Part shown: in pieces, positions 9,087-38,413 of the stretch
Layout of the letters: every line of letters starts with the position of its first letter
Numbering within the stretch: position 1 is the first letter of the stretch
Assembly: GCA_946061495.1 (NCBI GenBank)
Contig: CAMGSV010000001.1
Span: forward strand, 1-38,413
Length of the DNA stretch: 38,413 bases
Direction: 5' to 3'
Origin: an uncultured Spirochaetales bacterium
Lineage (GTDB): Bacteria; Spirochaetota; Spirochaetia; Treponematales; Treponemataceae
Position numbers and translations under genes: made by a program
Notes under the pieces: model-generated
Database searches by the model: none
What the model was told of the DNA's origin: nothing
Seen by the model: only the letters and a program-made list of their open reading frames with translations

Positions 9087-9385
9087 GGGTGGCAGTATAG
9101 CAGATGTAAACTAATAGTAAAAGGGGGATGCAGACTGGTCAGCTGGATTCCTAGCTGGTTTCCAATCCCAGCAGCTCGGCAGTGGCGCTAGAGCCAATCT
9201 GTCCGTACAGAAAAAGCCTCAGCTCCTGCTGGTAGTGTCCAGAAATGCACCGTGCAAATGGCGGTGGCAAACTTCACGTATTCTTAATATTTTTTTGAAA
9301 AATAAAGGTTTTGGGGATTTATTATGTTCTATTTTTCCTATAGGATGGTAGCAGTTGATACCATCGCAGATGTTCAGGAGGCTCC

Positions 9386-9841
9386 ATGTATCCACCCTTT
9401 TTCAATCCCTTCTTCAATTTCTCAAACAATCTGGAGGAGACAAAGACGGTTCTCAAGGATCGATTTCTCACTGAAGAGGAGACGAATTTCTTCTTTGAGA
9501 AGCTGCGGGAGTACAACCAGAAGTATTTTGTCAATATGCAGTATTGGTTCGTCAATTTCCTGGAGCGGGTGGTGCGCATGGAGAATTTCAACTTCTACAG
9601 CTACTCTCCCCTGACCTACTGGTGGGAGAACCAGTGGATAGGTTCCAAGCAAAAGCTCTCCAAGAGGCTGGGTGACGAGGGCTTCAACGCCTTCTTCATC
9701 ATGGTGGAGGATTTCATTGCGGAGGATGAGGAGCTCAGCCAGGAGGAGCGCTCCCAGCTGCAGGAAATTGCTCAGGTCTGCAAGATAAAGGCGATGAAAA
9801 ACTGGAGTCATGTTACCAGCATGCCCAGGGGAATTCTCTAG
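9386..9841 (+). CDS. Hypothetical protein (151 aa, aromatic-rich)
   Basis: AGGAGG RBS before the ATG; codon usage similar to neighbours; no motif recognised. Confidence 0.65.
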   Translation: MYPPFFNPFFNFSNNLEETKTVLKDRFLTEEETNFFFEKLREYNQKYFVNMQYWFVNFLERVVRMENFNFYSYSPLTYWWENQWIGSKQKLSKRLGDEGFNAFFIMVEDFIAEDEELSQEERSQLQEIAQVCKIKAMKNWSHVTSMPRGIL

Positions 9842-9908
9842 AGGTGTTGTACCCTGCAATGAAATAGTTTTTTTAAACGAAAGCTTTTGGCTGGTTTTCT
9901 CTCCAGCC

Positions 9909-9937
9909 TTGCCCCCATCCTTTTTTTTAGGTATAAT
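9909..9937 (+). promoter_or_regulatory. Sigma70-type promoter for citrate synthase
   Basis: TTGCCC-17 bp-TATAAT; the spacer contains a T8 run. Confidence 0.55.
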
Positions 9938-10043
9938 TACGAAAAATCTATTAGAATGTAGTATGTGGGCAGAAGGCCTTTAGTTCTGCCGTACATCATA
10001 GTGCATCACGGCTGGTCTTTCCAGCCTTCGGGAGGAGAAAATA

Positions 10044-11402
10044 TTGGCAGATTGCTTTGAGAATCTCATCGTGCAGAAGTTGTCCCTGTTGGTGGAGCTG
10101 AACGACCCCATCGATTCCAAACTGTACCAGAAATTCGACGTGAAGCGGGGCCTGCGTTATTCTGATGGCCGTGGCGTTCTGGCGGGCCTTACCCAGATTG
10201 GAGACGTTGTTGGTTACGAGGTGGTGGAGGGCCAGAAGGTGGCTGTTCCCGGAAAGCTCATCTACCGTGGCTACAATGTGGAGGATTTGGTGCGGGATAC
10301 GGCCTCCCAGGATGAGTTTGGATTCGAGCAGACGGTGTATCTGCTGCTTTTCGGCGACCTGCCCAACAAGACCCAGCTGGAGGAATTCCGCTCCTATCTG
10401 GGTGGCCGCCGTTCCCTGCCGGACAACTTCACCGAGGACATGATCATGAAGGCCCCCTCCCCAGACATCATGAACAAGCTTGCCCGCTGCGTGCTGGCCA
10501 GCTATTCCTACGATGAGAATCCTGACGATCCTGCCATTCCCAATGTGCTGAAGCAGTGCATTGACCTGGTGGCGAAATTCTCCACCTTCTCCGCCTACGC
10601 CTACCAGGCCAAGCGGCGGTATTACGACAAGAAGAGCATGTACATCCACAATCCGGTGTCGGAGCTTTCCACAGCGGAGAACTTCCTCCGCCTCATCCGT
10701 TCCGACAAGAGCTACACCAAGCTGGAGGCGGAGGTGTTGGATCTGGCGCTGATTCTCCATGCGGAGCACGGCGGTGGAAACAACTCCTCCTTCTCCATCC
10801 ACGTGGTGTCCTCCGCCGACACCGACACCTATTCCGCCATTGCCGCCGCCGTGGGTTCCCTCAAGGGGCGCCGTCACGGTGGCGCCAACATGATGGTGAT
10901 GCAGATGATGGACGACATCAAGGCCAACGTAAAGGACTGGTCCAACGAGGCTGAAATCAAGGAGTATCTGCGAAAAATTGTCCGCAAGGAGGCCTTTGAC
11001 CGCACGGGCCTCATCTACGGCCAGGGCCACGCTGTCTACACCATCTCCGATCCTCGTGCCATCCTGCTGCGGGACAAGGCGGCGGAGCTGGCCAAGGAAA
11101 AGGACATGATGGAGGAGTACGGCCTCTACTGCGCCATCGAGCGGCTGGCCCCGGAGGTCTTTGCGGAGGAGAAGGAGAGCGACAAGCAGATTTGCACCAA
11201 CGTGGACTTCTATTCCGGCTTTGTCTACACCATGCTGAACATTCCACGGGAATTGTACACCCCCATCTTCGCCATGTCCCGCATTGCCGGCTGGGCAGCC
11301 CACCGCATCGAGGAGGTGATTGCCGGGGGGCGCATCTACCGCCCCGCCTACAAGAATGTGCTTGATCCCCGCACCTTCGTTCCCATGGAAGGGAGGAAGT
11401 AG
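10044..11402 (+). CDS. gltA: Citrate/2-methylcitrate synthase
   Basis: GKLIYRGY, LHAEHGGGNNS, G..HGGAN, GQGHAVY..SDPR, NVDFYSG; TTG start with GGAGG RBS. Confidence 0.92.
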   Translation: MADCFENLIVQKLSLLVELNDPIDSKLYQKFDVKRGLRYSDGRGVLAGLTQIGDVVGYEVVEGQKVAVPGKLIYRGYNVEDLVRDTASQDEFGFEQTVYLLLFGDLPNKTQLEEFRSYLGGRRSLPDNFTEDMIMKAPSPDIMNKLARCVLASYSYDENPDDPAIPNVLKQCIDLVAKFSTFSAYAYQAKRRYYDKKSMYIHNPVSELSTAENFLRLIRSDKSYTKLEAEVLDLALILHAEHGGGNNSSFSIHVVSSADTDTYSAIAAAVGSLKGRRHGGANMMVMQMMDDIKANVKDWSNEAEIKEYLRKIVRKEAFDRTGLIYGQGHAVYTISDPRAILLRDKAAELAKEKDMMEEYGLYCAIERLAPEVFAEEKESDKQICTNVDFYSGFVYTMLNIPRELYTPIFAMSRIAGWAAHRIEEVIAGGRIYRPAYKNVLDPRTFVPMEGRK

Positions 11403-11404
11403 CG

Positions 11405-12160
11405 GTGGCGGGAGAACGGCTGGACAAGGTGCTGGCAAAGCATGGTTTTGGCTCCCGAAAGGATGCCCAGAAGCTGGTGCGGCGGGAAGGTATCCTTTTG
11501 AACGGCCAGCTGTGCCGCAGTCCCGACCAGCACATCGACCTGGACACTGACATGCTGGAGGTGGCCGGACAGGTGCTGCAGCTGCGCCGCCATCTCCACC
11601 TGATGATGAACAAGTGTGGCGGGGTGGTATGTTCCGCCAAGGACGGCCTCCACCGCACCGTCTTTGACCTGCTGGAGGAGGAGCTGCGCCACCAGTTCTT
11701 GGGTGGCAGCCTCCATCTGGTGGGCCGTCTGGACATTGACACGGAAGGACTGCTGGTCTTCACCACCGATGGTACCATGACCCATCGTCTCACCTCCCCA
11801 AAGAATCATGTTACAAAGAAATATCTGGTGGGCTTGCGGGATAGGGTGGAGCGAGGCTTGCAACCGCAGCTGGTGGAGGGGTTTCGTCAGGGCATCACCA
11901 TTGCACCTGAGGGTGATGATGGTGAGCATCTATGCCAGCCTGCTGGATTGGAGTGGATTTCTGACAGGGCGTGCCACCTCACCATTACGGAGGGGCGCTA
12001 CCACCAGGTGAAGCGGATGATGGCGGCTGTGGGCAATGAGGTGGTGAGCCTCAAGCGGATAGCCATGGGTGGTCTGAATCTGGATGCCAGTCTGGGCAGC
12101 GGCCAGTACCGGGAGCTGACGGCGGAGGAGCTTGCCCTGCTGACCAACCAGGCCCATTGA
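11405..12160 (+). CDS. RsuA-family rRNA pseudouridine synthase
   Basis: N-terminal S4 (RLDKVLA), GRLDIDTEGLL, TEGRYHQVKRM. Confidence 0.92.
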   Translation: MAGERLDKVLAKHGFGSRKDAQKLVRREGILLNGQLCRSPDQHIDLDTDMLEVAGQVLQLRRHLHLMMNKCGGVVCSAKDGLHRTVFDLLEEELRHQFLGGSLHLVGRLDIDTEGLLVFTTDGTMTHRLTSPKNHVTKKYLVGLRDRVERGLQPQLVEGFRQGITIAPEGDDGEHLCQPAGLEWISDRACHLTITEGRYHQVKRMMAAVGNEVVSLKRIAMGGLNLDASLGSGQYRELTAEELALLTNQAH

Positions 12161-12253
12161 CGGAGCTGATTTCCAGATGAAATGCAAGGGCTTGGAATTG
12201 CTTCCAAGCCCTCTTTTGTTCCTGCCGATGGTTTTTATTTTATTGTCGTATCC

Positions 12254-14845
12254 TTAGAGGGGATACTGCTTGTTCCGCAGCCGCTCCTCGAATTCCTCCT
12301 GGGACAGGGGCTTGTCAAAGTAGTAGCCCTGAATCAGGTCGCAGTCAAGCTCCTTCAGCACCTCTAATGTTTCTCGTGTCTCCACGCCCTCCGCCACAAT
12401 GTGCATGTCCAGCTCCTTTGCCATCCACACAATGTTTGTCACCACAATCTTTGACTGCCGGTTCTGGAGGATGGTGTCTATCAGGGACTTGTCCAGCTTC
12501 AGCACGTCGAATTGCAGGTTCTCCAGGAGGCTCAGGGAGGAGTAGCCGCTGCCAAAGTCGTCGATGGAGGCGGAGAAGCCCTTCTCGTTCAGCACGCGGA
12601 TGGCCTTGCTGAGCATCTTTTCGTCCTCGTTGTAGGCGGTCTCGGTGAACTCAATCTCGATGAGTTCATGGGGCAGCTGCCAGTTGTCCACGATGTTGCA
12701 GATGCGCTTGCCAATGTCTGGCATGGTGAAGTTCTGCTTGGAGAAGTTCACCGACACCTTCACTGGGTCCAGTCCCTGCTGTATCCAGGTGTCCATGGTG
12801 TTGCAGACCTGGTTCAGGATGTAGAAGTCCAGCTGCTGGATGAGGCCGGCAGACTCGCACATGGGAATGAACAGGGATGGAGGGATGAACTGCCCGTCCT
12901 TCTTCCAGCGAACCAGGGCTTCGGCACCCTTGAGCTTGTGGTCATGGACGCCCACCTTGGGCTGGTACACAATGATGAACTCCTTGTTTGCCAGAGCCTG
13001 GGGAATCTGCTGGATGTACATCATCTGGGTCAGGGTATGGTTCATGTTGGACTTGTTGTAGATGATGGTCTCATTGCTGCTGGAGTCGTTCTTCAAGGCA
13101 CCGGCAGAAAACAGGTGGCGGGCAATCTGGGAGAAGCTTTCCTCCGTGCCGTCGGGGTCGTAGGCGCCGCTTCTGACGGTGAGCTTCAGGGGAAAGTTGG
13201 TGTCCTCCGTGAGGCTGGTGAGCATCAGGTTGTTGATGAGGAAGATGTAGTATTTCAGATGGGGCTTGTTGAGGATGGCCACGAATTTGTCCGCCTCCAC
13301 ATGGAATAGCTGCTCTCCCGGCTCCAGATACCGCTGTGCTGCCTTGCTGAAATCCACCAGGATGGTGTTTGCCCCCTCATAGCCAAATCGATTGTTGAAC
13401 AGTCCGAACTGCTTGATGTCCAGCTGCACGTACACGTAGTTGGCAAAGGTGCCGTCCATAAAAAGCCGTTCAGCTGCCTTGAAGAGCATGGCCTTGTTGG
13501 GCAGTCCGGTGATGATGTCGGTGGTGGCCATCTTCATCATCATCTCTTGTCGATACTGGGTGCAGCTGTGGACGTTGTTGTATCCCTTGGCAATGGCCTC
13601 TGCCATGAGGCGGCAGCTCTTGTAGCCACAGTCCTGACAGTCGATGGTTCGGCTTGTGTCCGTGGTCTTGTACAGCTTCTGGAAGGCTTCCTCCACATCC
13701 TCTTCCCCCATCATTTTCTCAGGAATATGGAACGAATTGAAACTTCGTTGGAAATCATGAAGGTTCAGGGATGCGAATCGCCGTTGCAGCAGCTGGAGCC
13801 GTTGCCGTTCTGGAAGCCTGGGATTGTAGGGATTGTCCTTTTGTGAGAGGCAGGGAGCCGTTCGTGTTTGCAGGTTGAATTCATGGAGCACATTCTTGAT
13901 GTGGCAGTTTGCCTTGTCGGTGCCCGTTCCTGCAAGGCAGCCATGGGTGCAATCCAAGAAATCCATGAAGACATGCTCCCGGTTTTCTTTCAGCAGTCCC
14001 GCCATGGAACCCTCCTGTTCACCCAGATTGCCAAGTGCGGTCAACTGGATTCTCATGTCCCTGGTTCCCAGAAAATGGTCCATGTTTTCCTTCAGTCCAC
14101 CGGGAAAGTAGAGCCTGCCCTTTGGACCAATCCCCAGGAGGTTGAGCTTTGCAGAATAGTTGGAAATGTCCTGGTCTCCGATTCTTTCCAGCAGGTGCTT
14201 TATGGTGATGTGGTGGCTGATGTAGCCCAGGGTCTCTGGGGAACTGATTTGGTCGTAGTCGGCGATGCAGGGACTGAGATAGGCCAACCGCTCCTGGACG
14301 TTGCGGTATTTCTTCAGGTAGATTGCCAGGCTAACGGAGGGAGTGTGGATGGGGACCAGATTGGGAATCAGTTCCGGGTGAAGCTTTTCCACGTAGTTTA
14401 CCATGGAACTGCAGGTGGAGGAGATGGTGGCAGGTGCGTGCTCCTGCTGCAGATACTGGCTGTGAGCCCAGGTAACGATGTCGGAGCCAGCGGAGGCGTC
14501 GTAGAATTTCCTCACTCCCAGGGACTTGAGCCAGCCAAGAATCTGGTGGGCCTTTTCCGGGTACTGGAGCCACAGGATGGGGGATACAATGAGGGAGAGG
14601 TGGACTCCTGATTCCAGAGCCTTGAAGAAATCCTTGGTGTCGTCGGTATATTCCCGGGCTGTTTGAGGGCAGCCATCAAGACAGTGGCCACAGTGGATGC
14701 AGCGGGTGTTGTCCACAATCACATACCGCTTGCCGTTCTGGTGGACGGAAATGTTTGCTCCGGAAACTGGACAGGTGGAAATGCACCTGTTGCATCCAAT
14801 ACATTTGTCATTTGTGAAGATAACCTGTTTTTCCAGCTGTTGCAT
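12254..14845 (-). CDS. Fe-S / [FeFe]-hydrogenase-like sensor domain fused to degenerate GGDEF and EAL phosphodiesterase
   Basis: CIGCNRCISTCP and CIHCGHCLDGCP; SSTCSS, SPCIAD, LDCTHGCLAG; CQDCGYKSC...C; VEADKF at the GGDEF position; EALVRW, DDFGSGYSS, EGVE. Confidence 0.85.
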   Translation of the reverse strand: MQQLEKQVIFTNDKCIGCNRCISTCPVSGANISVHQNGKRYVIVDNTRCIHCGHCLDGCPQTAREYTDDTKDFFKALESGVHLSLIVSPILWLQYPEKAHQILGWLKSLGVRKFYDASAGSDIVTWAHSQYLQQEHAPATISSTCSSMVNYVEKLHPELIPNLVPIHTPSVSLAIYLKKYRNVQERLAYLSPCIADYDQISSPETLGYISHHITIKHLLERIGDQDISNYSAKLNLLGIGPKGRLYFPGGLKENMDHFLGTRDMRIQLTALGNLGEQEGSMAGLLKENREHVFMDFLDCTHGCLAGTGTDKANCHIKNVLHEFNLQTRTAPCLSQKDNPYNPRLPERQRLQLLQRRFASLNLHDFQRSFNSFHIPEKMMGEEDVEEAFQKLYKTTDTSRTIDCQDCGYKSCRLMAEAIAKGYNNVHSCTQYRQEMMMKMATTDIITGLPNKAMLFKAAERLFMDGTFANYVYVQLDIKQFGLFNNRFGYEGANTILVDFSKAAQRYLEPGEQLFHVEADKFVAILNKPHLKYYIFLINNLMLTSLTEDTNFPLKLTVRSGAYDPDGTEESFSQIARHLFSAGALKNDSSSNETIIYNKSNMNHTLTQMMYIQQIPQALANKEFIIVYQPKVGVHDHKLKGAEALVRWKKDGQFIPPSLFIPMCESAGLIQQLDFYILNQVCNTMDTWIQQGLDPVKVSVNFSKQNFTMPDIGKRICNIVDNWQLPHELIEIEFTETAYNEDEKMLSKAIRVLNEKGFSASIDDFGSGYSSLSLLENLQFDVLKLDKSLIDTILQNRQSKIVVTNIVWMAKELDMHIVAEGVETRETLEVLKELDCDLIQGYYFDKPLSQEEFEERLRNKQYPL

Positions 14846-14990
14846 TTTGCTGCCCCCGGAGGATTTTTCACTAACTCTAAGTGAAAGGAATGCTTTTGTC
14901 AACAATAGAGAAAAATTAAACATACTAAAACTATGGGAAAAATGTGTAAATCCCCTTCACTTTTATCTCTAAAACCATTATATTTAAATC

Positions 14991-30894: not shown

Positions 30895-31533
30895 ATGGAA
30901 GGAAAACAGACGCTGGGCGGGGCCGTCAGCAGCTTTGAGCAGCAGTTCAAGAAATTCCAGGATTCGGGCAACAAGCCGCCGGAATTCCTGTTGCCCAAGA
31001 AGCGGGCCGCTGCCAAGACCCTGGCCACAGAGAAGGCCCGCAAGGGAAAGCGGGACGTGGTGGCCGCCTATCGGGAGCTCTTGTGGCCAGAAGCCACCTT
31101 CGGGGACTTTTCCGCCATTGCCCAGCAGCTGGAGGATGACAAGAAGCTTCTGGTGCGGGCCTACGATCTTTTCGTTGCTCTGGTGGACGTGAACCGCCAG
31201 CTGGGAGACCAGGACACCTTCATTGAGGACTTCACCATTGCATCCCCCCTCACCCAGCGGGAGCGCTACACCACTGGCTCGGACTTTGTGTACCTCCAGT
31301 TCTGGCTCCAGTGGGAGGCCAAGCGAACCGACTATGTGCCGGTGCTGCGCCTTGCCCGTGGACAGCCCGGCTGGCAGCTGGTGTTCGTCCCCAGTGGCAG
31401 CTTCTCCTGGACGGACTGGGAGCTTTCCGTGGTGCAGCTTCTGGAGGAGGAGTTCTACAAGGGGAGGATGCCGGGATTAGGCGCTGCCGACGCTGCCGAT
31501 GGCTCTGACGCTGCGGTGGAGGCGAGAAGCTGA
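30895..31533 (+). CDS. Hypothetical protein
   Basis: AGGAGG RBS and host-like codon usage; no motif recognised. Confidence 0.7.
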   Translation: MEGKQTLGGAVSSFEQQFKKFQDSGNKPPEFLLPKKRAAAKTLATEKARKGKRDVVAAYRELLWPEATFGDFSAIAQQLEDDKKLLVRAYDLFVALVDVNRQLGDQDTFIEDFTIASPLTQRERYTTGSDFVYLQFWLQWEAKRTDYVPVLRLARGQPGWQLVFVPSGSFSWTDWELSVVQLLEEEFYKGRMPGLGAADAADGSDAAVEARS

Positions 31534-32144
31534 CAAATGAGCTGAGGAAAGGTGGTCTCACGGTGCATACGCAATGGGGGTACTGTGGCAGAATCCATGG
31601 TGTAGAATTCATATTGTTCTTGTGTGTGGGGCCAACAGATGCCAAGTCCCTGTAATTTACCTTGGAATCTATTGGTGGCGTTGTTGCAGATGACGAGGTG
31701 CTCCAGCTGGGTTACAAGTTCCTGGGACAAGAGACGGATTGATGGGGAAAGGGAAGGGGTATTTAAGATGGCATTTGTAATTTCCCTCAAATCGATATAT
31801 TCGGTGTATACGATATCATAGGAAGTACAACTTTGGCGAAGGGATTGAACTGCCGCCTGCTCTTCCATCGAGGCATTGCTCAGGGAGTCTGTCCATTGGG
31901 TGAAAGTGATACGGAAGCTGGGCAGACTTTCTGTTGCCATGGCGGAGTAGGAGATGCTGGTGACAGTATTCGAATAGAATTCCTTGAAGGATTCCACCGA
32001 GACCAGGGCGAATTCTCGGTCTGTTATGTCAGGTGTTTTTGTAAGATGGGAAAGAATTGCTTTGTAGTTGCTGCCGGTTCCGGGAACGTTGGCTTGGGAG
32101 CCGACAATGTAGGTTGCCTCATGTTCCAGTTGCCACACGGTCTC
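31455..32144 (-). pseudogene. C-terminal half of a clostripain-like (C11) peptidase
   Basis: ETVWQL...YIVGSQANVPGTGSNY, YIDL, GLGICWP resemble the C11 segment after the catalytic Cys; no proper start and no catalytic His/Cys region. Confidence 0.55.
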
Positions 32145-32706
32145 CCTCCTCCACTAGCTGCAGGACTGCCGCCGCCACGAAGGTCTTGGTAATGCTGTAG
32201 ATGTAGTGGAGGGTTCCGCTCCCGTTTGACTCTCTGGTGGACAGGGATGTATAGCCTGTGTCTATGGAAAAGTCCACATCGTTTCCCTGCACCGCTACGG
32301 ATACGGCGGTCTGGATGTTGTGCTGGTCCAGGAAGGAGTGGACGGTCTTGATGAGGGCGGGATGCGAGGTGCTATAGACGTGGCAAGTGGCGCTGGCAAT
32401 TACTTGGCCGTCCCGATTGCACTGGGCCTGGACAGTGTGCCGTTTCTCATGGGGACTGGCGGTGGCAGAAAGTGAGGCTCCTTTGCCCTCTACTGTGCCG
32501 CCGTCCACCAGCCAGGTGATGGCACAGTCTTGCGGCAGATGGCTGGCTGTCACTGTGAAGGTGCTGCTCGGAGCCACCACATCCGACTGTGGCTGTATAG
32601 CGAATGCCGCTGGAGTCTCCTGGTTGTGCCTGCACGCTGATAGGAGCAGGATGGCCAGCACTCCCGCCGCCAGCAGAGAGATTCTATTACTGGTATTTGT
32701 ACACAT
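32119..32706 (-). pseudogene. Lipoprotein with Ig-like domain and truncated beta-lactamase-family serine hydrolase
   Basis: Lipobox LLSAC; YIYSITKTFVAAAVLQLVEEG (SxxK motif), then a stop 7 codons later. The ATG overlaps the 3' end of the upstream gene. Confidence 0.7.
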
Positions 32707-33709
32707 ACAGCGTCTCCTTGCACGGGTTAATTCTGTTTTCGGCGGAATCCTCCTGGCCCTCCGGCAGGTTGAACCAGGTGAAGGTGACGGTGTCCTCCGT
32801 GTCCCGGTGTAGCTCCACGTACTGCGGGGCATCGGGCGCGCCGTCAAAGAGCCGGTACACGGCCTTCTGGTTGGCCTCATCCACGGATATTTCCTTCATG
32901 CCCTGAAGGATGTTTGGTACATCTATCTCACCCCTATCCAGCAGAATTGTTTTTGGAAAACTGTTTGCTATTATAGAACGATCCTTATTTATGTAACCAA
33001 TTAGTTTGCTGTTGTCCGATAACTTTACTTGTCTGTATTTTATTTGCCTCATTGATGTGTCCTGATATACCAGAGCGGGAAGCCAGTTGTATACAGTGCT
33101 TTGGGGATAATATCCTATTTGGGGAGCATATAGTTGTTGGTTTATTATGTCAGTATTATTGATGGTCAGCCTGTAGGTGAAATAATCAATATGATTTTCT
33201 GTCTTAATGAGCTGGAGATTGCATTGGGCTTCTCCTATGATTTCGCCTTCATATCCATGTTTTGCAATGGGATTGTAACTGAATGCTTTTTGATTTTGCT
33301 GGGGAATGGTAATAAAGCTGTTGTCATCGATGATTTTATTCCACAAGTGTAACAGGAGGCAACATTTTCCGTTGTCGAATTCTAGGATAATGTTCATAAC
33401 GGTGACATACAATCGGTAGTTCCCGGTGTATTCTCGTATGGGAACATATTTTCCAGTGCTATCTGGTATAGAGAGGTGTTGAGGAACAATACTTCTGAGA
33501 GGAGCATTGGTGTCTGACTGCCACTGAGACCATTGCGAGAATGCTGCATCGTAAAGGTTCATTCCAACATCGTTTCTTGCCCAGTCAGGATAGTTCATTA
33601 TGAGTGCTCCAATATTTTCCACTCTTTTTTTTTCTGTTAAAGAAGGACAGCCGGTGAGGAGGACGCAGAGGAGCAGGACGGCGGAGATGGGGATTTGTTT
33701 CTTGGTCAT
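32687..33709 (-). CDS. Variable lipoprotein, paralogue 1 (340 aa)
   Basis: AAGGAG RBS, MTKKQ...LLTGC lipobox, conserved C-terminal QKAVYRLFDGAPDAPQYVELHRDT. Confidence 0.85.
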   Translation of the reverse strand: MTKKQIPISAVLLLCVLLTGCPSLTEKKRVENIGALIMNYPDWARNDVGMNLYDAAFSQWSQWQSDTNAPLRSIVPQHLSIPDSTGKYVPIREYTGNYRLYVTVMNIILEFDNGKCCLLLHLWNKIIDDNSFITIPQQNQKAFSYNPIAKHGYEGEIIGEAQCNLQLIKTENHIDYFTYRLTINNTDIINQQLYAPQIGYYPQSTVYNWLPALVYQDTSMRQIKYRQVKLSDNSKLIGYINKDRSIIANSFPKTILLDRGEIDVPNILQGMKEISVDEANQKAVYRLFDGAPDAPQYVELHRDTEDTVTFTWFNLPEGQEDSAENRINPCKETLYVYKYQ

Positions 33710-33771
33710 TGTGGTCTCCTTTGGTAAATTTGTGTGTCGCGTTTCTGAATAGAAAACCGACATACGTCTGA

Positions 33772-35073
33772 TTACTTATGCATCAGATTGAACGAGAAGA
33801 AGTGATAGAAGGGATTGTACGTCTCCCAGCCATTGTCGTATCCATTCCCATCAATCACTTTTATGTACGACCACTTGAAAATCCACCAGCCCTTCTCATC
33901 GTAGGCCACCACATTGCGGTAGTGGAGACCGCCGGTAAGTTGGCTCAGGCCGGACACTCCCCGCCAGTTTATGCCGGGAAGGTTGTTGTTGATGCAGGTG
34001 TTGGGGACAACCCCCAGGGCAAGGGTAACTTTGTAATTCGAGTAGCTTGCCACCGCATTGCCGAGATTCCACGGCCACGTCGCCCCCGTAAAAACGCCGC
34101 TGGTGATAATGCCCATCTTGGATTCCAAGGTGTTCACTCGGCTTGACCAGGAGAGATTGTTCCAAGTTTCAAGATTTTGCAAGCCATTCTCATGGATAAA
34201 GTCCAATAAAAATCCTGCTGAGGTAGGGCCACAATAGTTGTAAGAGGTGGGGTCTGCCTTGTCAATCATTCCCTGATCCACGCTCTTCCTCGGCTCGGAG
34301 CGTGAGCTGCCCCGGAAGGCCATGGAGCCCAGGCTGCCCTTGTTGGCCTTCGCCATGGCCCACAGCTGCGCGGTCTCCTCCCGCCATGCGGCAAGTTCGG
34401 ACTCTATGGCGGCGGTGTCCAGCTGCCCGGCCAGCTCCGGGTGCTGCCCAAGCATCTCCTCGGCGGTCAGCACCCTGGCAAGCTCCCCAGCGTCCTTCCC
34501 GGTTGCCGGATCCAGCACCCGCTGGAACTCCACGCTCCCGCCCCTGCTCACTGACACCGAGGCCACTGCGTGGGAAGGGTAGTCGTCGTCCACGATGCGG
34601 GGAATGTCGTCCTTGTCCAGCGCCCCCGTCAGGTACAGCTGGCTCAGCTCGTCCATGTAGCCGTCCATGGGGAACACCCTTGCGATGGGGCCTCCCAAAT
34701 CCTCCCGGGCGTTTCCGGCGATGGCGGCCACCACCCGCTCCCCGTCCATGACCCGGAACTCGTAGTAGCGCACAGTTCCCTCCGCATCATAGATGGCGAT
34801 GGGAATCTCCCAGAGGGTGGCGGAGGCGGGGAAGTCTCCCGCCGAGATGAAGTCCTCCAGAGCAAGCTGGGCGAACTCCCTGGACAGCTGCCAGTCCACA
34901 ATGCCCTCTCCGCCCCGGCTGAGCATGGCGTTCAGGTCATGCTCGGATGCCAGCAGCTCCATCTCCCGGCGGAGGGAGGTGTCCATGTCCTGCTGGCGGG
35001 TGGCGTTCCCACAGCCCAGCACAAAGGCCGCCATTACCAGGCTGACGGCGGTAATTGTTGTGAATCCTCTCAT
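33772..35073 (-). CDS. Lipoprotein with N-terminal pro-like domain and C-terminal papain-fold (C39/C10-like) cysteine peptidase domain (433 aa)
   Basis: GAGGAGG RBS, lipobox VLGC; YCGPTSA, GATWP, HYRNVVAY, IDGNG fit a Cys-His-Asp/Asn papain-like layout. Confidence 0.65.
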   Translation of the reverse strand: MRGFTTITAVSLVMAAFVLGCGNATRQQDMDTSLRREMELLASEHDLNAMLSRGGEGIVDWQLSREFAQLALEDFISAGDFPASATLWEIPIAIYDAEGTVRYYEFRVMDGERVVAAIAGNAREDLGGPIARVFPMDGYMDELSQLYLTGALDKDDIPRIVDDDYPSHAVASVSVSRGGSVEFQRVLDPATGKDAGELARVLTAEEMLGQHPELAGQLDTAAIESELAAWREETAQLWAMAKANKGSLGSMAFRGSSRSEPRKSVDQGMIDKADPTSYNYCGPTSAGFLLDFIHENGLQNLETWNNLSWSSRVNTLESKMGIITSGVFTGATWPWNLGNAVASYSNYKVTLALGVVPNTCINNNLPGINWRGVSGLSQLTGGLHYRNVVAYDEKGWWIFKWSYIKVIDGNGYDNGWETYNPFYHFFSFNLMHK

Positions 35074-35106
35074 CTTTTTCCTCCTCTTTGGATGAGTGGG
35101 TATAGC

Positions 35107-35268
35107 TCCATTGTGGGGCATGAATTCCCAGTTGTCAAGTTAGGCCAGGGTAATTTTAACGGAATTTTAATTGTTGCATGGATTTAACCTCTTTTTTATA
35201 GATATGGAGTTATCTATAAAAATAAAGATCAATGGCCAGCAGCCCTGCTGCCGTCGCTGCCGTCACGG
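35107..35268 (-). repeat. Inter-cassette repeat R1 (162 bp)
   Basis: Near-identical to R2 and R3; contains minus-strand TTGACA-17-CACAAT and tttttatagata-N6-tatctataaaaa. Confidence 0.95.
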
Positions 35269-35273
35269 AGATT

Positions 35274-36248
35274 CTATTTCTGCACATACAGCGTCTCCTT
35301 GCGCGGTTTAATTCTGTTTGCGGCGGAATCCTCCTGGCCCTCCGGCAGGTTGAACCAGGTGAACAGGACGGTGTCCTCCGTGTCCCGGTGTAGCTCCACG
35401 TACTGCGGGGCATCGGGCGCGCCGTCAAAGAGCCGGTACACGGCCTTCTTCTGGCTATCATCCAAGGAGACCTGCTTCATGCCGCCGTGGTAGAAAAGCT
35501 CGTTGGCAGTGGCCTGCCCCAAGTTGTCATAGCCGTGGGTGGAGGCACTGAAGCACCTGAACCCGGTGGTGACAAGGTCCTGCTCTCTAATTCTTGGTTT
35601 TTGGAACACATACTTTGGATTGTAGGTATCGGGTTCCTTGTGGAATGTATCTGGTAGCCAGCTGGGAACAGTGTTGCTGGTAAAATACGGCTCCTTCATG
35701 GCGGTGAAATCTGTGTTGACCATCTCGGTCTCGGCAATATTGAGTTTGTAGTTGAAAAGGAACTGTTTGTCATCTTCCGATTTTTTTGTCATGGTTACGG
35801 TGGCAGTCTTGTCCTGGGAAGAATCAGAGAAATCGAATTTCGCTGTGCCGGAGAAGGTGAACGAGTCGGGCGTTGTCTGGGGGATGGTGATGTCAGTGGA
35901 GTCGTGGTCGTCCTCCGTCACTTTTGCCAGCCAGACATACAGGAACACGACAGCCATTCCGTCATCAAATTCTATGCCAAGGTTCTGGCCTATCATCACC
36001 AGCCGGTATTTTCCGGTGTAGTCCTGCCGGTTGTATTTAGCTGGCAGCAACTGACTGAGGGCAGATCCTGCCCAATCCTGCCATTTGGAGAACGATTCTC
36101 CGGGGCGGGCAGCGTATGACCATTCAGGCAAATTTGCAATGCCCTTGCCTATGTTCTGGTAGAGGTTCATCCAGCAGTTGCAGGGGCAGCCGGTGAGGAA
36201 GACGCAGAGGAGTAGGACAGCGGCGATGAGAAGTATTTTCTTGGTCAT
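35274..36248 (-). CDS. Variable lipoprotein, paralogue 2 (324 aa)
   Basis: Same RBS/leader (FLTGC) and conserved C-terminal block as paralogues 1 and 3. Confidence 0.85.
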   Translation of the reverse strand: MTKKILLIAAVLLLCVFLTGCPCNCWMNLYQNIGKGIANLPEWSYAARPGESFSKWQDWAGSALSQLLPAKYNRQDYTGKYRLVMIGQNLGIEFDDGMAVVFLYVWLAKVTEDDHDSTDITIPQTTPDSFTFSGTAKFDFSDSSQDKTATVTMTKKSEDDKQFLFNYKLNIAETEMVNTDFTAMKEPYFTSNTVPSWLPDTFHKEPDTYNPKYVFQKPRIREQDLVTTGFRCFSASTHGYDNLGQATANELFYHGGMKQVSLDDSQKKAVYRLFDGAPDAPQYVELHRDTEDTVLFTWFNLPEGQEDSAANRIKPRKETLYVQK

Positions 36249-36285
36249 TGTGGTCTCCTTGAGACAGGTAATGAGCTGGTATACA

Positions 36286-36438
36286 TCCATTGTGGGGCAT
36301 GAATTCCCAGTTGTCAAGTTAGGCCAGGGTAATTTTAACGGAATTTTAATTGTTGCATGGATTTAACCTCTTTTTTATAGATATGGGGTTATCTATAAAA
36401 ATAAAGATCAATGGCCAGCAGCCCTGCTGCCGTCACGG
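36286..36438 (-). repeat. Inter-cassette repeat R2 (153 bp)
   Basis: As R1 but with one fewer 9-bp gctgccgtc unit; palindrome loop tggggt. Confidence 0.95.
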
Positions 36439-36443
36439 AGATT

Positions 36444-37481
36444 CTATTTCTGCACATACAGGGTCTCCTTCCGCAGGACACTCCTGTTCGTGGTGGCATC
36501 TTCTTGGCCCTCCGGCAGGTTGAACCAGGTGAACAGGACGGTGTCTTTCGTGTCCCGGTGCAGCTCCACGTACTGCGGGGCGTCGGGGGCGCCGTCAAAG
36601 AGCCGGTACACGGCCTTCTGGTTGTCATTGTCCACGGAGATTTCCTTCATGCCGCCGTGGTAGGTGGGGGCTGGCAGGTAGGAGGAGTGTTCAAGGTGGA
36701 CGTTGTACACTCCGTTGTTTCCTAGCGCAGGGGGAGAGTAGAAGTGCGTGTAGCTGGTGTAGTGATTCCCCGAAAGCTTCCCTATAATATTGCATTCCTC
36801 GCTGGAATCTTGCCTGGAAGAGCCGTCCTTTCTGACGTAGAGTCTTGACGGCAACCACGTGTGGACGGAATTCTGCTTGTCTGCAAACCATTGTTCAGTG
36901 TAGACATGGAATTTCTCATTGACTATGGGCTGTCCGTCTATGCTCAGGATGTAGGAGAACGTCGTCCGTCCTGTAGCCTCTTGGGTTCCTTTTGTCATAG
37001 TGCAGGCGAATTCTCCGATGTCCTGTCCTCCATAGAAACCGTATTTAGCTGTCCCATTGAAGCTGAATAGGTCGGGATCTGGTTGTGGAATGATGAGGGG
37101 GGTGTCGTAGTTTTCCTTTGTCGGTTCTTCCATGAAAAGGTAGAGCAGCCCGCATTCATACCCGTTGTCAAATTGAATGTAAAGAGTTTGCTCCCCAAGC
37201 TCGAGTTGGTAGAATCCCTTATAGTCGTAGACGCTCATTCTGTCATCAAAGGCAAAGTCTGAGGGGACGAGTTTGCGAAGGCTGCTGGCCTGCTCATCTT
37301 GCCAGAGCTTCCAATCTGACACACCTCCTGTACTTGTGCAGCTTACAGCCCATTGTGGATAGTTTGAAATCAGCCGCCCCCTGAGTTTTACCTCTTCTGG
37401 CAAGGAATACCAAGTTGTACAGCCGGTGAGAAGGACACAGAGAAGCAGGACGGCGGAGATGGGGATTTGTTTCTTGGTCAT
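36444..37481 (-). CDS. Variable lipoprotein, paralogue 3 (345 aa)
   Basis: Same leader (LLTGC) and C-terminal block. Confidence 0.85.
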   Translation of the reverse strand: MTKKQIPISAVLLLCVLLTGCTTWYSLPEEVKLRGRLISNYPQWAVSCTSTGGVSDWKLWQDEQASSLRKLVPSDFAFDDRMSVYDYKGFYQLELGEQTLYIQFDNGYECGLLYLFMEEPTKENYDTPLIIPQPDPDLFSFNGTAKYGFYGGQDIGEFACTMTKGTQEATGRTTFSYILSIDGQPIVNEKFHVYTEQWFADKQNSVHTWLPSRLYVRKDGSSRQDSSEECNIIGKLSGNHYTSYTHFYSPPALGNNGVYNVHLEHSSYLPAPTYHGGMKEISVDNDNQKAVYRLFDGAPDAPQYVELHRDTKDTVLFTWFNLPEGQEDATTNRSVLRKETLYVQK

Positions 37482-37518
37482 TGTGGTCTCCTTGAGACAG
37501 GTAATGAGCTGGTATACA

Positions 37519-37680
37519 TCCATTGTGGGGCATGAATTCCCAGTTGTCAAGTTAGGCCAGGGTAATTTTAACGGAATTTTAATTGTTGCATGGATTTAAC
37601 CTCTTTTTTATAGATATGAGGTTATCTATAAAAATAAAGATCAATGGCCAGCAGCCCTGCTGCCGTTGCTGCCGTCACGG
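37519..37680 (-). repeat. Inter-cassette repeat R3 (162 bp)
   Basis: As R1; palindrome loop tgaggt; homology ends abruptly at 37680. Confidence 0.95.
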
Positions 37681-37805
37681 TTGGTGTGGCGGTTGACAAA
37701 TGCGGGGGAGTGCAGGGGGGATGGTGGAGCCTGTATCCATGAATTCGTAGAAAAGCTTTGTACTAAATTGGATAAATGTAGTGGAATGTGATAGGAGGGG
37801 AGGCT

Positions 37806-38060
37806 ATGGGCAGCTGGGATAGGGTTTTGGATTCTATTCTCTCTGGCGTTCAGGATGCCAACATCAATTTCAAAGATTTGACCAAGCTGTTGGAAATGCT
37901 TGGATTCAACTTGCGGATAAAGGGAGACCATCATATTTTTATACGACAGAATGTGGTGGAAATCATCAATGTGTAGCCGAAAGGAAGCAAGGCAAAGCCA
38001 TATCAAGTGAAACAGGTACGGAATAGTATTTTAAGGTACAAGTTGGGGGGTGAGCTATGA
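37806..38060 (+). pseudogene. hicA: HicA-family toxin interrupted by an in-frame TAG
   Basis: FKDLTKLLEMLGF..RIKGDHHIF...IINV*PKGSKAKPYQVKQVR; TAG at 37974-37976; the frame continues to a TGA overlapping the hicB ATG. Confidence 0.85.
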
Positions 38061-38266
38061 ATCGGTATGAGATTGTGGTGTATTGGAGCGACGAGGACGA
38101 CTGCTATATTGCCGAGGTGCCGGAGCTTCCCGGGTGCATGGTTGATGGTGCCGACCGGCAGGAGGTGGTGCGCAATGTGGAGCTGGTGATTGACCAATGG
38201 CTTGAGACCGCCCAGGAGGAAGGACGGCCAATTCCCGTTCCAAAGGGGAGGCTCATGTACGTCTAG
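38057..38266 (+). CDS. hicB: HicB-family antitoxin (short form)
   Basis: YEIVVYWSDED..YIAEVPELPGCM.DG...W...A.E.GRPIP.P. Confidence 0.9.
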   Translation: MNRYEIVVYWSDEDDCYIAEVPELPGCMVDGADRQEVVRNVELVIDQWLETAQEEGRPIPVPKGRLMYV

Positions 38267-38362
38267 CTTGTGCATGAAGTAACCCGAAGGTACAGTCTAA
38301 AAAAAAAGCGGAAGCCGTAAAGGAGGCCACTGAAAAAGGTCTCCAATTTTAAGGCCTGAAAA

Positions 38363-38406
38363 AAAAGCCAGATTTTTGAGAAAAAAATCTCATAAATCTG
38401 GCTTTT
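38363..38406. terminator. Inverted repeat (bidirectional terminator or IS-end structure)
   Basis: aaaagccagattt...aaatctggctttt with inner tgaga/tctca pairing. Confidence 0.5.
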
Positions 38407-38413
38407 GCTCTTT

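Follow-up and report, generated by a model that had tools for sequence, protein, structure and literature searches.

How do neighbouring genes keep similar ends while the middles between them diverge, and what might an array of such genes do? This question is raised by a locus of an uncultured Spirochaetales bacterium (Treponemataceae) that lies on contig CAMGSV010000001.1 of assembly GCA_946061495.1. The window, that is, the whole stretch of 38,413 nucleotides that we analysed, is contig C1 of this 2.44-Mb assembly (G000), which is 86% complete. An earlier note had described in it a tandem array of three paralogous lipoprotein genes (here family P, modules A, B and C) with constant ends and variable middles. 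The array is present as described, with one gene left out: X, which encodes a predicted cysteine-protease zymogen, lies inside the array directly behind repeat copy 1. The explanation that we favour, with a probability of roughly 60%, is that divergent P genes standing in tandem within an operon X-P-p0-C11 are shuffled by RecA-type recombination, and that their products are cognate and spare partners of X, probably inhibitors. Read along the minus strand, the locus begins with repeat 3 and continues with C, repeat 2, B, repeat 1, X, A, p0 and a fragment of the C11 gene:

37504–37680, minus strand: repeat copy 3, made of the S stretch (remnant of a signal-peptide start), an AT-rich 23-bp inverted repeat (37594–37645) and a sigma70-like promoter (37550–37522)
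36444–37481, minus strand: P module C, a lipoprotein of 345 amino acids; shared C-terminal block (C-block) at about 36444–36663
36271–36433, minus strand: repeat copy 2, with S, inverted repeat and promoter (36317–36289), then a short leader to B
35274–36248, minus strand: P module B, 324 amino acids; predicted lipocalin-like beta-barrels at residues 38–187 and 190–324; shared C-block at about 35274–35493
35092–35268, minus strand: repeat copy 1, with S, inverted repeat and promoter (35138–35110), in front of X
33772–35073, minus strand: X, a lipoprotein of 433 amino acids; predicted cysteine-protease zymogen with a papain fold, closest to prostaphopain B; Cys281 and His384 are conserved
32687–33709, minus strand: P module A, 340 amino acids; the middle is low in GC, and the last codons extend over the start of p0
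32119–32706, minus strand: p0, a serine-hydrolase lipoprotein of the beta-lactamase/PBP superfamily, shortened by the absence of about 1.5 kb that relatives have; similar to the S stretch at its 5' end
31455–32138, minus strand: 3' part of a clostripain-family (C11) gene, the last of the conserved X-P(n)-p0-C11 operon

All array data come from short-read metagenome assemblies, and the sequencing runs that contain the stretch are mostly animal gut metagenomes. Near-identical proteins carry the source labels Spirochaetaceae bacterium or Treponema sp.

Shared ends and divergent middles

Proteins A, B and C are mutually 38–43% identical (tblastn). At the DNA level, identity among the window paralogues is 79–95% over the first 21 codons, 39–46% over the middles and 85.5–90.8% over the last 69 codons, so that the ends, said earlier to be near-identical, are strongly similar without being identical. 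The earlier note had held that equal synonymous divergence in ends and middles would point to plain purifying selection. We find that synonymous divergence (pS, uncorrected) is saturated in the middles (0.66–0.77) and amounts to only 0.06–0.26 in the C-blocks and 0.18–0.42 in the short N-terminal blocks. Thus, purifying selection alone does not account for the ends. Across 46 family members, moreover, the mean share of the commonest residue is 0.32 in the C-block stretch as opposed to 0.42 at residues 38–110, and the scattered motifs reported from the middles turn out to be the conserved core of the family. The GC content of the middles is 0.39 in A, 0.51 in B and 0.50 in C, and that of the C-blocks 0.59–0.60; the counts of 40/60 and 20/60 given earlier for the boundary between constant and variable parts are exact, and the sharp drop occurs in module A only.

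Between strains, the description of constant ends and variable middles has to be reversed: the middles form a small fixed set, and it is the ends that vary. Among 58 proteins assigned to module types A to D (D being a fourth module, found in relatives), the mean pairwise amino acid difference within a module is 0.16–1.5% for the middles and 7.0–16.6% for the C-blocks. (Note that these proteins were drawn from four 90% clusters with 148 members together, of which 60 were examined, P0051 being dropped as truncated and P0058 as missed by the motif filter; cluster members are related and not independent, and the 90% identity cut favours low values in the middles.) No match above the cut-offs of Pfam or NCBIfam was found for A, B, C, D or X, and no further copy of P elsewhere in the 86%-complete assembly. 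Literature on Treponema lipoprotein arrays, staphostatins and papain-like proteins yielded no paper on the P family, most subscription journals lying outside the scope of that search.

The middles of A to D do not form one clade, a grouping rejected by an approximately unbiased (AU) test with p-AU 2.8e-5 (17 rows, a quick tree with long branches present), and the middle of C groups with an outside protein, P0093 (support 100/98). The modules were thus likely gathered from different lineages. In the other genus in which P occurs, tandem P pairs group together or closely in the tree, like local duplicates, and tandem copies with homogenised ends arose separately there (G237, G241).

Protein C as a query found matches in 3 of 60 relatives, all three within the 15 of the same genus. 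The locus occupies a slot between a conserved gene and a gene that we take to be ilvC; the operon is absent from this slot in all five other genus members whose slot was read (G008, G009, G011, G014 and G015). Relative to G012, pS is 0.66–0.79 in three flanking genes, 0.014 in p0 and 0.045 in the middle of B, and relative to G003 it is 0.30–0.41 in flanking genes as against 0.03 at the locus. Judged by these values, the locus moves between species almost unchanged.

Module order, junctions and exchange

The window reads C-B-X-A-p0. In G003, B is followed by a frameshifted C, a truncated X fused to the start of a junction, module D and p0, and in G012, G004 and L013 the order is X-B-p0. Consecutive locus tags of one assembly give C-A-X-B, and those of four others B-C-?-D-A, C-?-D-A, B-C-?-D and C-?-D, in which the question mark is probably X. 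As to the read mapping that the earlier note had named as a check for assembly artefacts, it was carried out with contigs of other runs, eight in all, aligned to the window. In single contigs from these runs X adjoins C (X1) or B (X11), and the S stretch adjoins A (X1, X7, X9, X11), C (X7, X9) or p0 (X11). Identical fixed arrays across related strains, which the earlier note had named as evidence against exchange, are therefore not what is found, since number and order differ between strains and species.

We considered it very improbable that these orders and the mosaic ends described below are assembly chimeras formed across the repeats of mixed strains. Such chimeras would be favoured by short-read data, and the Logan contigs do break at the repeats, none of them spanning the array. 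Against this, the longest exact shared runs within the window measure only 50–114 bp, and single contigs run across the X-B and X-C joints, where 24 and 50 bases are ambiguous and the shorter side has at least 255 bases. In addition, G012 and G004, which have a single copy of P, still differ from the window, and the mosaics switch within 5–15 codons.

These mosaics are found in the C-block. The share of variation explained by module falls from 0.72 at its start to 0.06 at its end (58 proteins), and four-gamete violations rise with distance, from 6 of 42 column pairs (at most four residues apart) through 52 of 72 to 165 of 186. Each of the modules A, B and C is found with at least two N-termini, and the tail that overlaps p0 occurs with A, B and D and never with C (0 of 15). 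Crossovers scattered over the C-block in this way argue for homologous recombination and not for a site-specific recombinase; recA is present in the assembly. Together, the differences in order, the contrast in pS and the mosaics support the proposal that the constant blocks act as recombination anchors by which modules are gained, lost and swapped.

The assembly contains three copies of the repeat, all of them in this array; copies 1 and 3 agree to 96%. Each copy contains a sigma70-like site matching at 10 of 12 positions and the 23-bp inverted repeat, whose arms are separated by a 6-bp spacer that differs slightly from copy to copy. Of the earlier description of a promoter-bearing repeat, the repeat and the promoter-like site stand; promoter function is a prediction from sequence, and so are all 12 putative promoter-like sites that we count in the region (5.4 ± 2.5 in shuffled sequences). 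We also considered the inverted repeat as a dispersed miniature inverted-repeat transposable element or an attC site, and set both aside, the assembly holding only three copies when up to 8 mismatches are allowed.

Modules are joined in two ways. The last codons of every C-block contain AAGGAG and the ATG that opens the next signal peptide. At a head-to-tail junction the frame borne by the C-block continues into the next module (B to C in G003), whereas at the window junctions it enters the repeat and stops after 22–25 codons, the next gene starting anew behind the promoter copy. The likeness between the S stretch and the start of p0 suggests how the first duplication may have come about; in G241, of the other genus, two P copies and p0 share a similar stretch (85 bp, 93%).

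A recombinase acting on the inverted repeat as its core site, so that the modules would be integron-like or dif-module-like cassettes, might be read from the two arms, the 6-bp spacer, its slight differences between copies and the presence of one such element per repeat copy. This reading is largely refuted, and we regard it as the least probable of all, given that the inverted repeat is missing from the head-to-tail junctions and from the whole G003 array, and that crossovers are spread along the C-block. The three matches to Phage_integrase (PF00589), moreover, all lie on other contigs (C48, C78 and C190), none beside the array, whose contig ends 730 bp beyond it; an Xer enzyme encoded elsewhere, unlinked to the array, may be involved.

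Taken together, these results suggest the following course of events. A basic operon X-P-p0-C11, with P right behind X, is kept in two genera. Divergent P alleles of other lineages would have been captured in one slot, the locus crossing between species. Exchange over the signal-peptide block (about 60 bp), the C-block (about 210 bp) and the S stretch, presumably by RecA, homogenises the ends and makes them mosaic, and whole middles, X included, are added, dropped or reordered. Each junction is then either head-to-tail, in which case the next gene takes its ribosome-binding site and start from the C-block, or has a promoter repeat inserted, and we infer from these two forms that gene order and promoter copies set the expression, and hence the amount, of each module. 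We hold these four steps jointly to be highly probable.

Metatranscriptomes bear on expression as follows: six runs of three studies contain 24–36% of the sequence words, and contigs of X14 cover p0, A, X, the repeat and B in part, and not the middle of C. Since such contigs may derive from DNA, they are no demonstration of expression. Read depth differs between modules in X7 and X9, depth being no measure of copy number.

Several further observations concern the array. At window position 32143–32145, about 1.5 kb that is present in G003, G012, G004 and contigs of several runs is absent, so that the front of p0 is joined to the back of C11; this gap is either a strain-specific deletion or an assembly error. 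In L046 (G258:C94:1-4925) the gene order is p0, C11, 1 kb, X and the start of P, a permuted operon of the kind that tandem amplification or a circle would be expected to give. In L010 (10559–11044), X is joined to S at a short stretch common to both, next to the codon of the catalytic cysteine, and the fusion product consists of a signal-peptide remnant and the C-terminal part of the protease without that cysteine. X itself has allelic patches at 34205–34276 of the window (next to the catalytic cysteine) and at 34966–35047 (behind the signal peptide), and its alleles precede different modules: the window type A or C, the G012 type B and the G003 type D.

The predicted protease gene and the possible function of P

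Profile searches of 301 family genomes found X in 25 and P in 16, G000 among them. Of the 15 other P-bearing genomes, 13 have P immediately after an X match. A strong X match is followed by P in each of the 12 genomes that have one (in G258 only by the start of P, at a contig end); no P match was found in the 10 genomes whose X match is weak and in most cases lies in the prodomain. The gap between X and P is 3–81 nucleotides in 11 loci, and P is doubled in G223, G237, G241 and G293. The X-P(n)-p0-C11 operon is constant in the two genera, L014 included. (Note that L014, a rodent gut contig, carries more duplicated lipoprotein pairs around its single-copy operon, at 189–2194 and 9204–13405.)

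The model of X (mean predicted local distance difference test score, pLDDT, 78) matches prostaphopain B over residues 31–433 (Foldseek E 1.3e-5; VIA Z 11.9, root-mean-square deviation (rmsd) 5.4, 268 aligned) and also prointerpain A (Z 9.1). Consistent with a papain-fold zymogen, as predicted from the model, Cys281 and His384 are conserved. Of 22 X relatives, one has a weak match to Peptidase_C39_2 (E 0.003); relatives P0066–P0072 are 45–58% identical to X. The model of P (pLDDT 90.7) consists of two beta-barrels. For the second barrel the structural matches are weak, namely staphostatin B (Z 6.7, rmsd 3.8, 88 aligned) and staphostatin A (Z 5.7), both below Z 8; its first barrel has as its best row, which is also the top row overall, the lipocalin-fold protein Tp0751 (Z 6.9, likewise below Z 8). 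The ESM Atlas gave a best score of 0.80, and the nearest named cluster there is lipocalin-like (0.77), which we treat as a lead only. Foldseek gave no match to the P model at E 0.001, and sequence searches of solved structures gave nothing significant. A match to GpsB (E 0.12) and Foldseek rows for neurotoxin binding domains (probability below 0.1, template modelling (TM) score about 0.1) were taken as chance.

Given a zymogen of staphopain type whose neighbour resembles a staphostatin, an inhibitor is the most parsimonious guess. From these models we propose, tentatively and at somewhat less than even odds, that P inhibits X-type proteases. The last and weakest step of the scheme would then be that P binds such proteases and that spare modules guard the surface against the proteases of other strains, a step in which we place equally guarded trust. 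The trees of X and P roughly agree, for which co-inheritance alone suffices.

A number of points weigh against our explanation. P occurs without an X match in G206 and G315 (2 of the 15 genomes), and gene adjacency fits any shared pathway, p0 and C11 being bound to the operon too. With no P match at Z 8 and Tp0751 as the top row, the fold may be merely a common arrangement, and in 46 family rows the region ahead of the last strand shows no conserved counterpart of the IGTS stretch of staphostatins. The crossover pattern does not name the enzyme, and the data are short-read assemblies, with 60 of 148 cluster members that are not independent. Finally, the damaged copies (a frameshift in C and a truncation of X in G003, and the p0/C11 deletion in the window) fit weak selection. 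They would also be expected if the repeats were by-products of an operon that was gained horizontally and is decaying, with neutral recombination between its duplicated ends, yielding a repertoire without benefit, and the slot without the operon in all five other genus members in which it was read fits such decay as well. Four very divergent middles are nevertheless intact in dozens of assemblies, and homogenised tandem copies arose separately in G237 and G241, so that we judge neutral decay improbable.

The lipocalin-like matches bear on another alternative, namely that P proteins serve at the surface as ligand binders, adhesins or antigens, and that their shuffling alters what host or phage sees. 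The best match of the first barrel is a protein of Treponema pallidum, many rows are lipocalins, and the Foldseek rows of better probability are nitrophorins; moreover, the copy number of csa1 lipoproteins alters immune stimulation in S. aureus (PMC7360770). Unlike antigens that escape immunity, however, the middles are fixed across strains and species, and the tie to a protease gene holds in two genera. We therefore think this alternative unlikely, and retain partnership with X as the better account of P. An extended form of that account, in which the locus is a recombinase-free, integron-like array of foreign two-barrel inhibitor alleles directed at proteases, tuned by order and promoter cassette and passed between species, strikes us as doubtful; if true, it would make surface cysteine proteases weapons between gut spirochaetes.

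Outside the operon, just upstream of the array (37788–38266), a HicA-like gene is interrupted by a stop and a HicB-like gene is intact; G003 and G011 retain only a remnant of the HicB end. The contig breaks at 38323–38413 in the end of a multi-copy element resembling an insertion sequence, which has very high depth in several runs and copies at contig ends in G000 and G014. At 12254–14923, one gene fuses ferredoxin, Fe-hydrogenase-like, GGDEF and EAL domains.

Comparison with known systems

The arrangement, unrecognised in the earlier note, has precedents in the tipC, esaG and lpl arrays (PMC9484751, PMC2568036). The tipC genes of Streptococcus have homology blocks at both ends, a variable centre and a probable lipoprotein signal peptide, and occur in up to 15 copies that recombine through the blocks (PMC9484751). 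Like tipC and esaG, the P genes are tandem, non-identical paralogues at the locus of one gene for an enzyme, here a predicted one, and like tipC they have end homology blocks, recombination through these blocks, and copy number and order that differ between strains. Unlike tipC and esaG, they belong to another phylum and another protein family, and their partner is a predicted lipoprotein protease zymogen and not a type VII toxin; moreover, the enzyme gene moves within the P array, the promoter cassette is optional, and the middles are not one clade. The lpl and csa1 genes of S. aureus are tandem lipoprotein paralogues that are shuffled, expanded and contracted by homologous recombination at a conserved stretch (PMC2568036, PMC7360770). 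In lpl this stretch lies in the middle and each unit comprises two genes, whereas in P it spans the junction and whole middles move.

With regard to the protease, Bacteroides C10 protease genes are coupled to staphostatin-like genes (PMC3462683), and a reactive, substrate-like IGTS stretch with a P1 glycine has been described for staphostatin B (PMC7863939). As in the staphopain-staphostatin pairs, a partner gene lies directly behind that of a zymogen with a predicted papain fold; the product of the partner gene is predicted to have lipocalin-like barrels, the second of which weakly resembles staphostatins. Staphostatins, however, are single barrels of 109–111 amino acids, whereas P is a predicted two-barrel lipoprotein of 300 amino acids in which no conserved IGTS-like stretch was found, and arrays of divergent copies are not described for staphopain-staphostatin or C10 pairs in the accessible parts of these sources (PMC7863939, PMC3462683).

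The P array also differs from integrons and dif modules, having no site at every cassette border, no fixed crossover position and no adjoining tyrosine recombinase. In antigenic variation by gene conversion (tprK, vlsE, msp2/p44), conserved ends flank a variable middle in surface proteins. The P array, by contrast, consists of three full-length genes with starts, has neither silent donors in the 86%-complete assembly nor a single expression site, and its middles are fixed alleles that are not hypervariable within a species.

Because the tipC, lpl and csa1 arrays recombine likewise, the mechanism is known in kind. What is new here is the P family, the link to a protease, modules of mixed origin, an enzyme gene that moves within its array and an optional promoter cassette. 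A treponemal lipoprotein family thereby gains a predicted fold, a partner and a testable job, and the locus offers a natural case in which the same short homologies shuffle gene order, translational coupling and promoter copies. If P were a generic surface lipoprotein, this would be one more recombining paralogue array; if P inhibits X, the 'spare immunity gene' arrays of toxin systems would extend to secreted-type proteases of animal gut spirochaetes.

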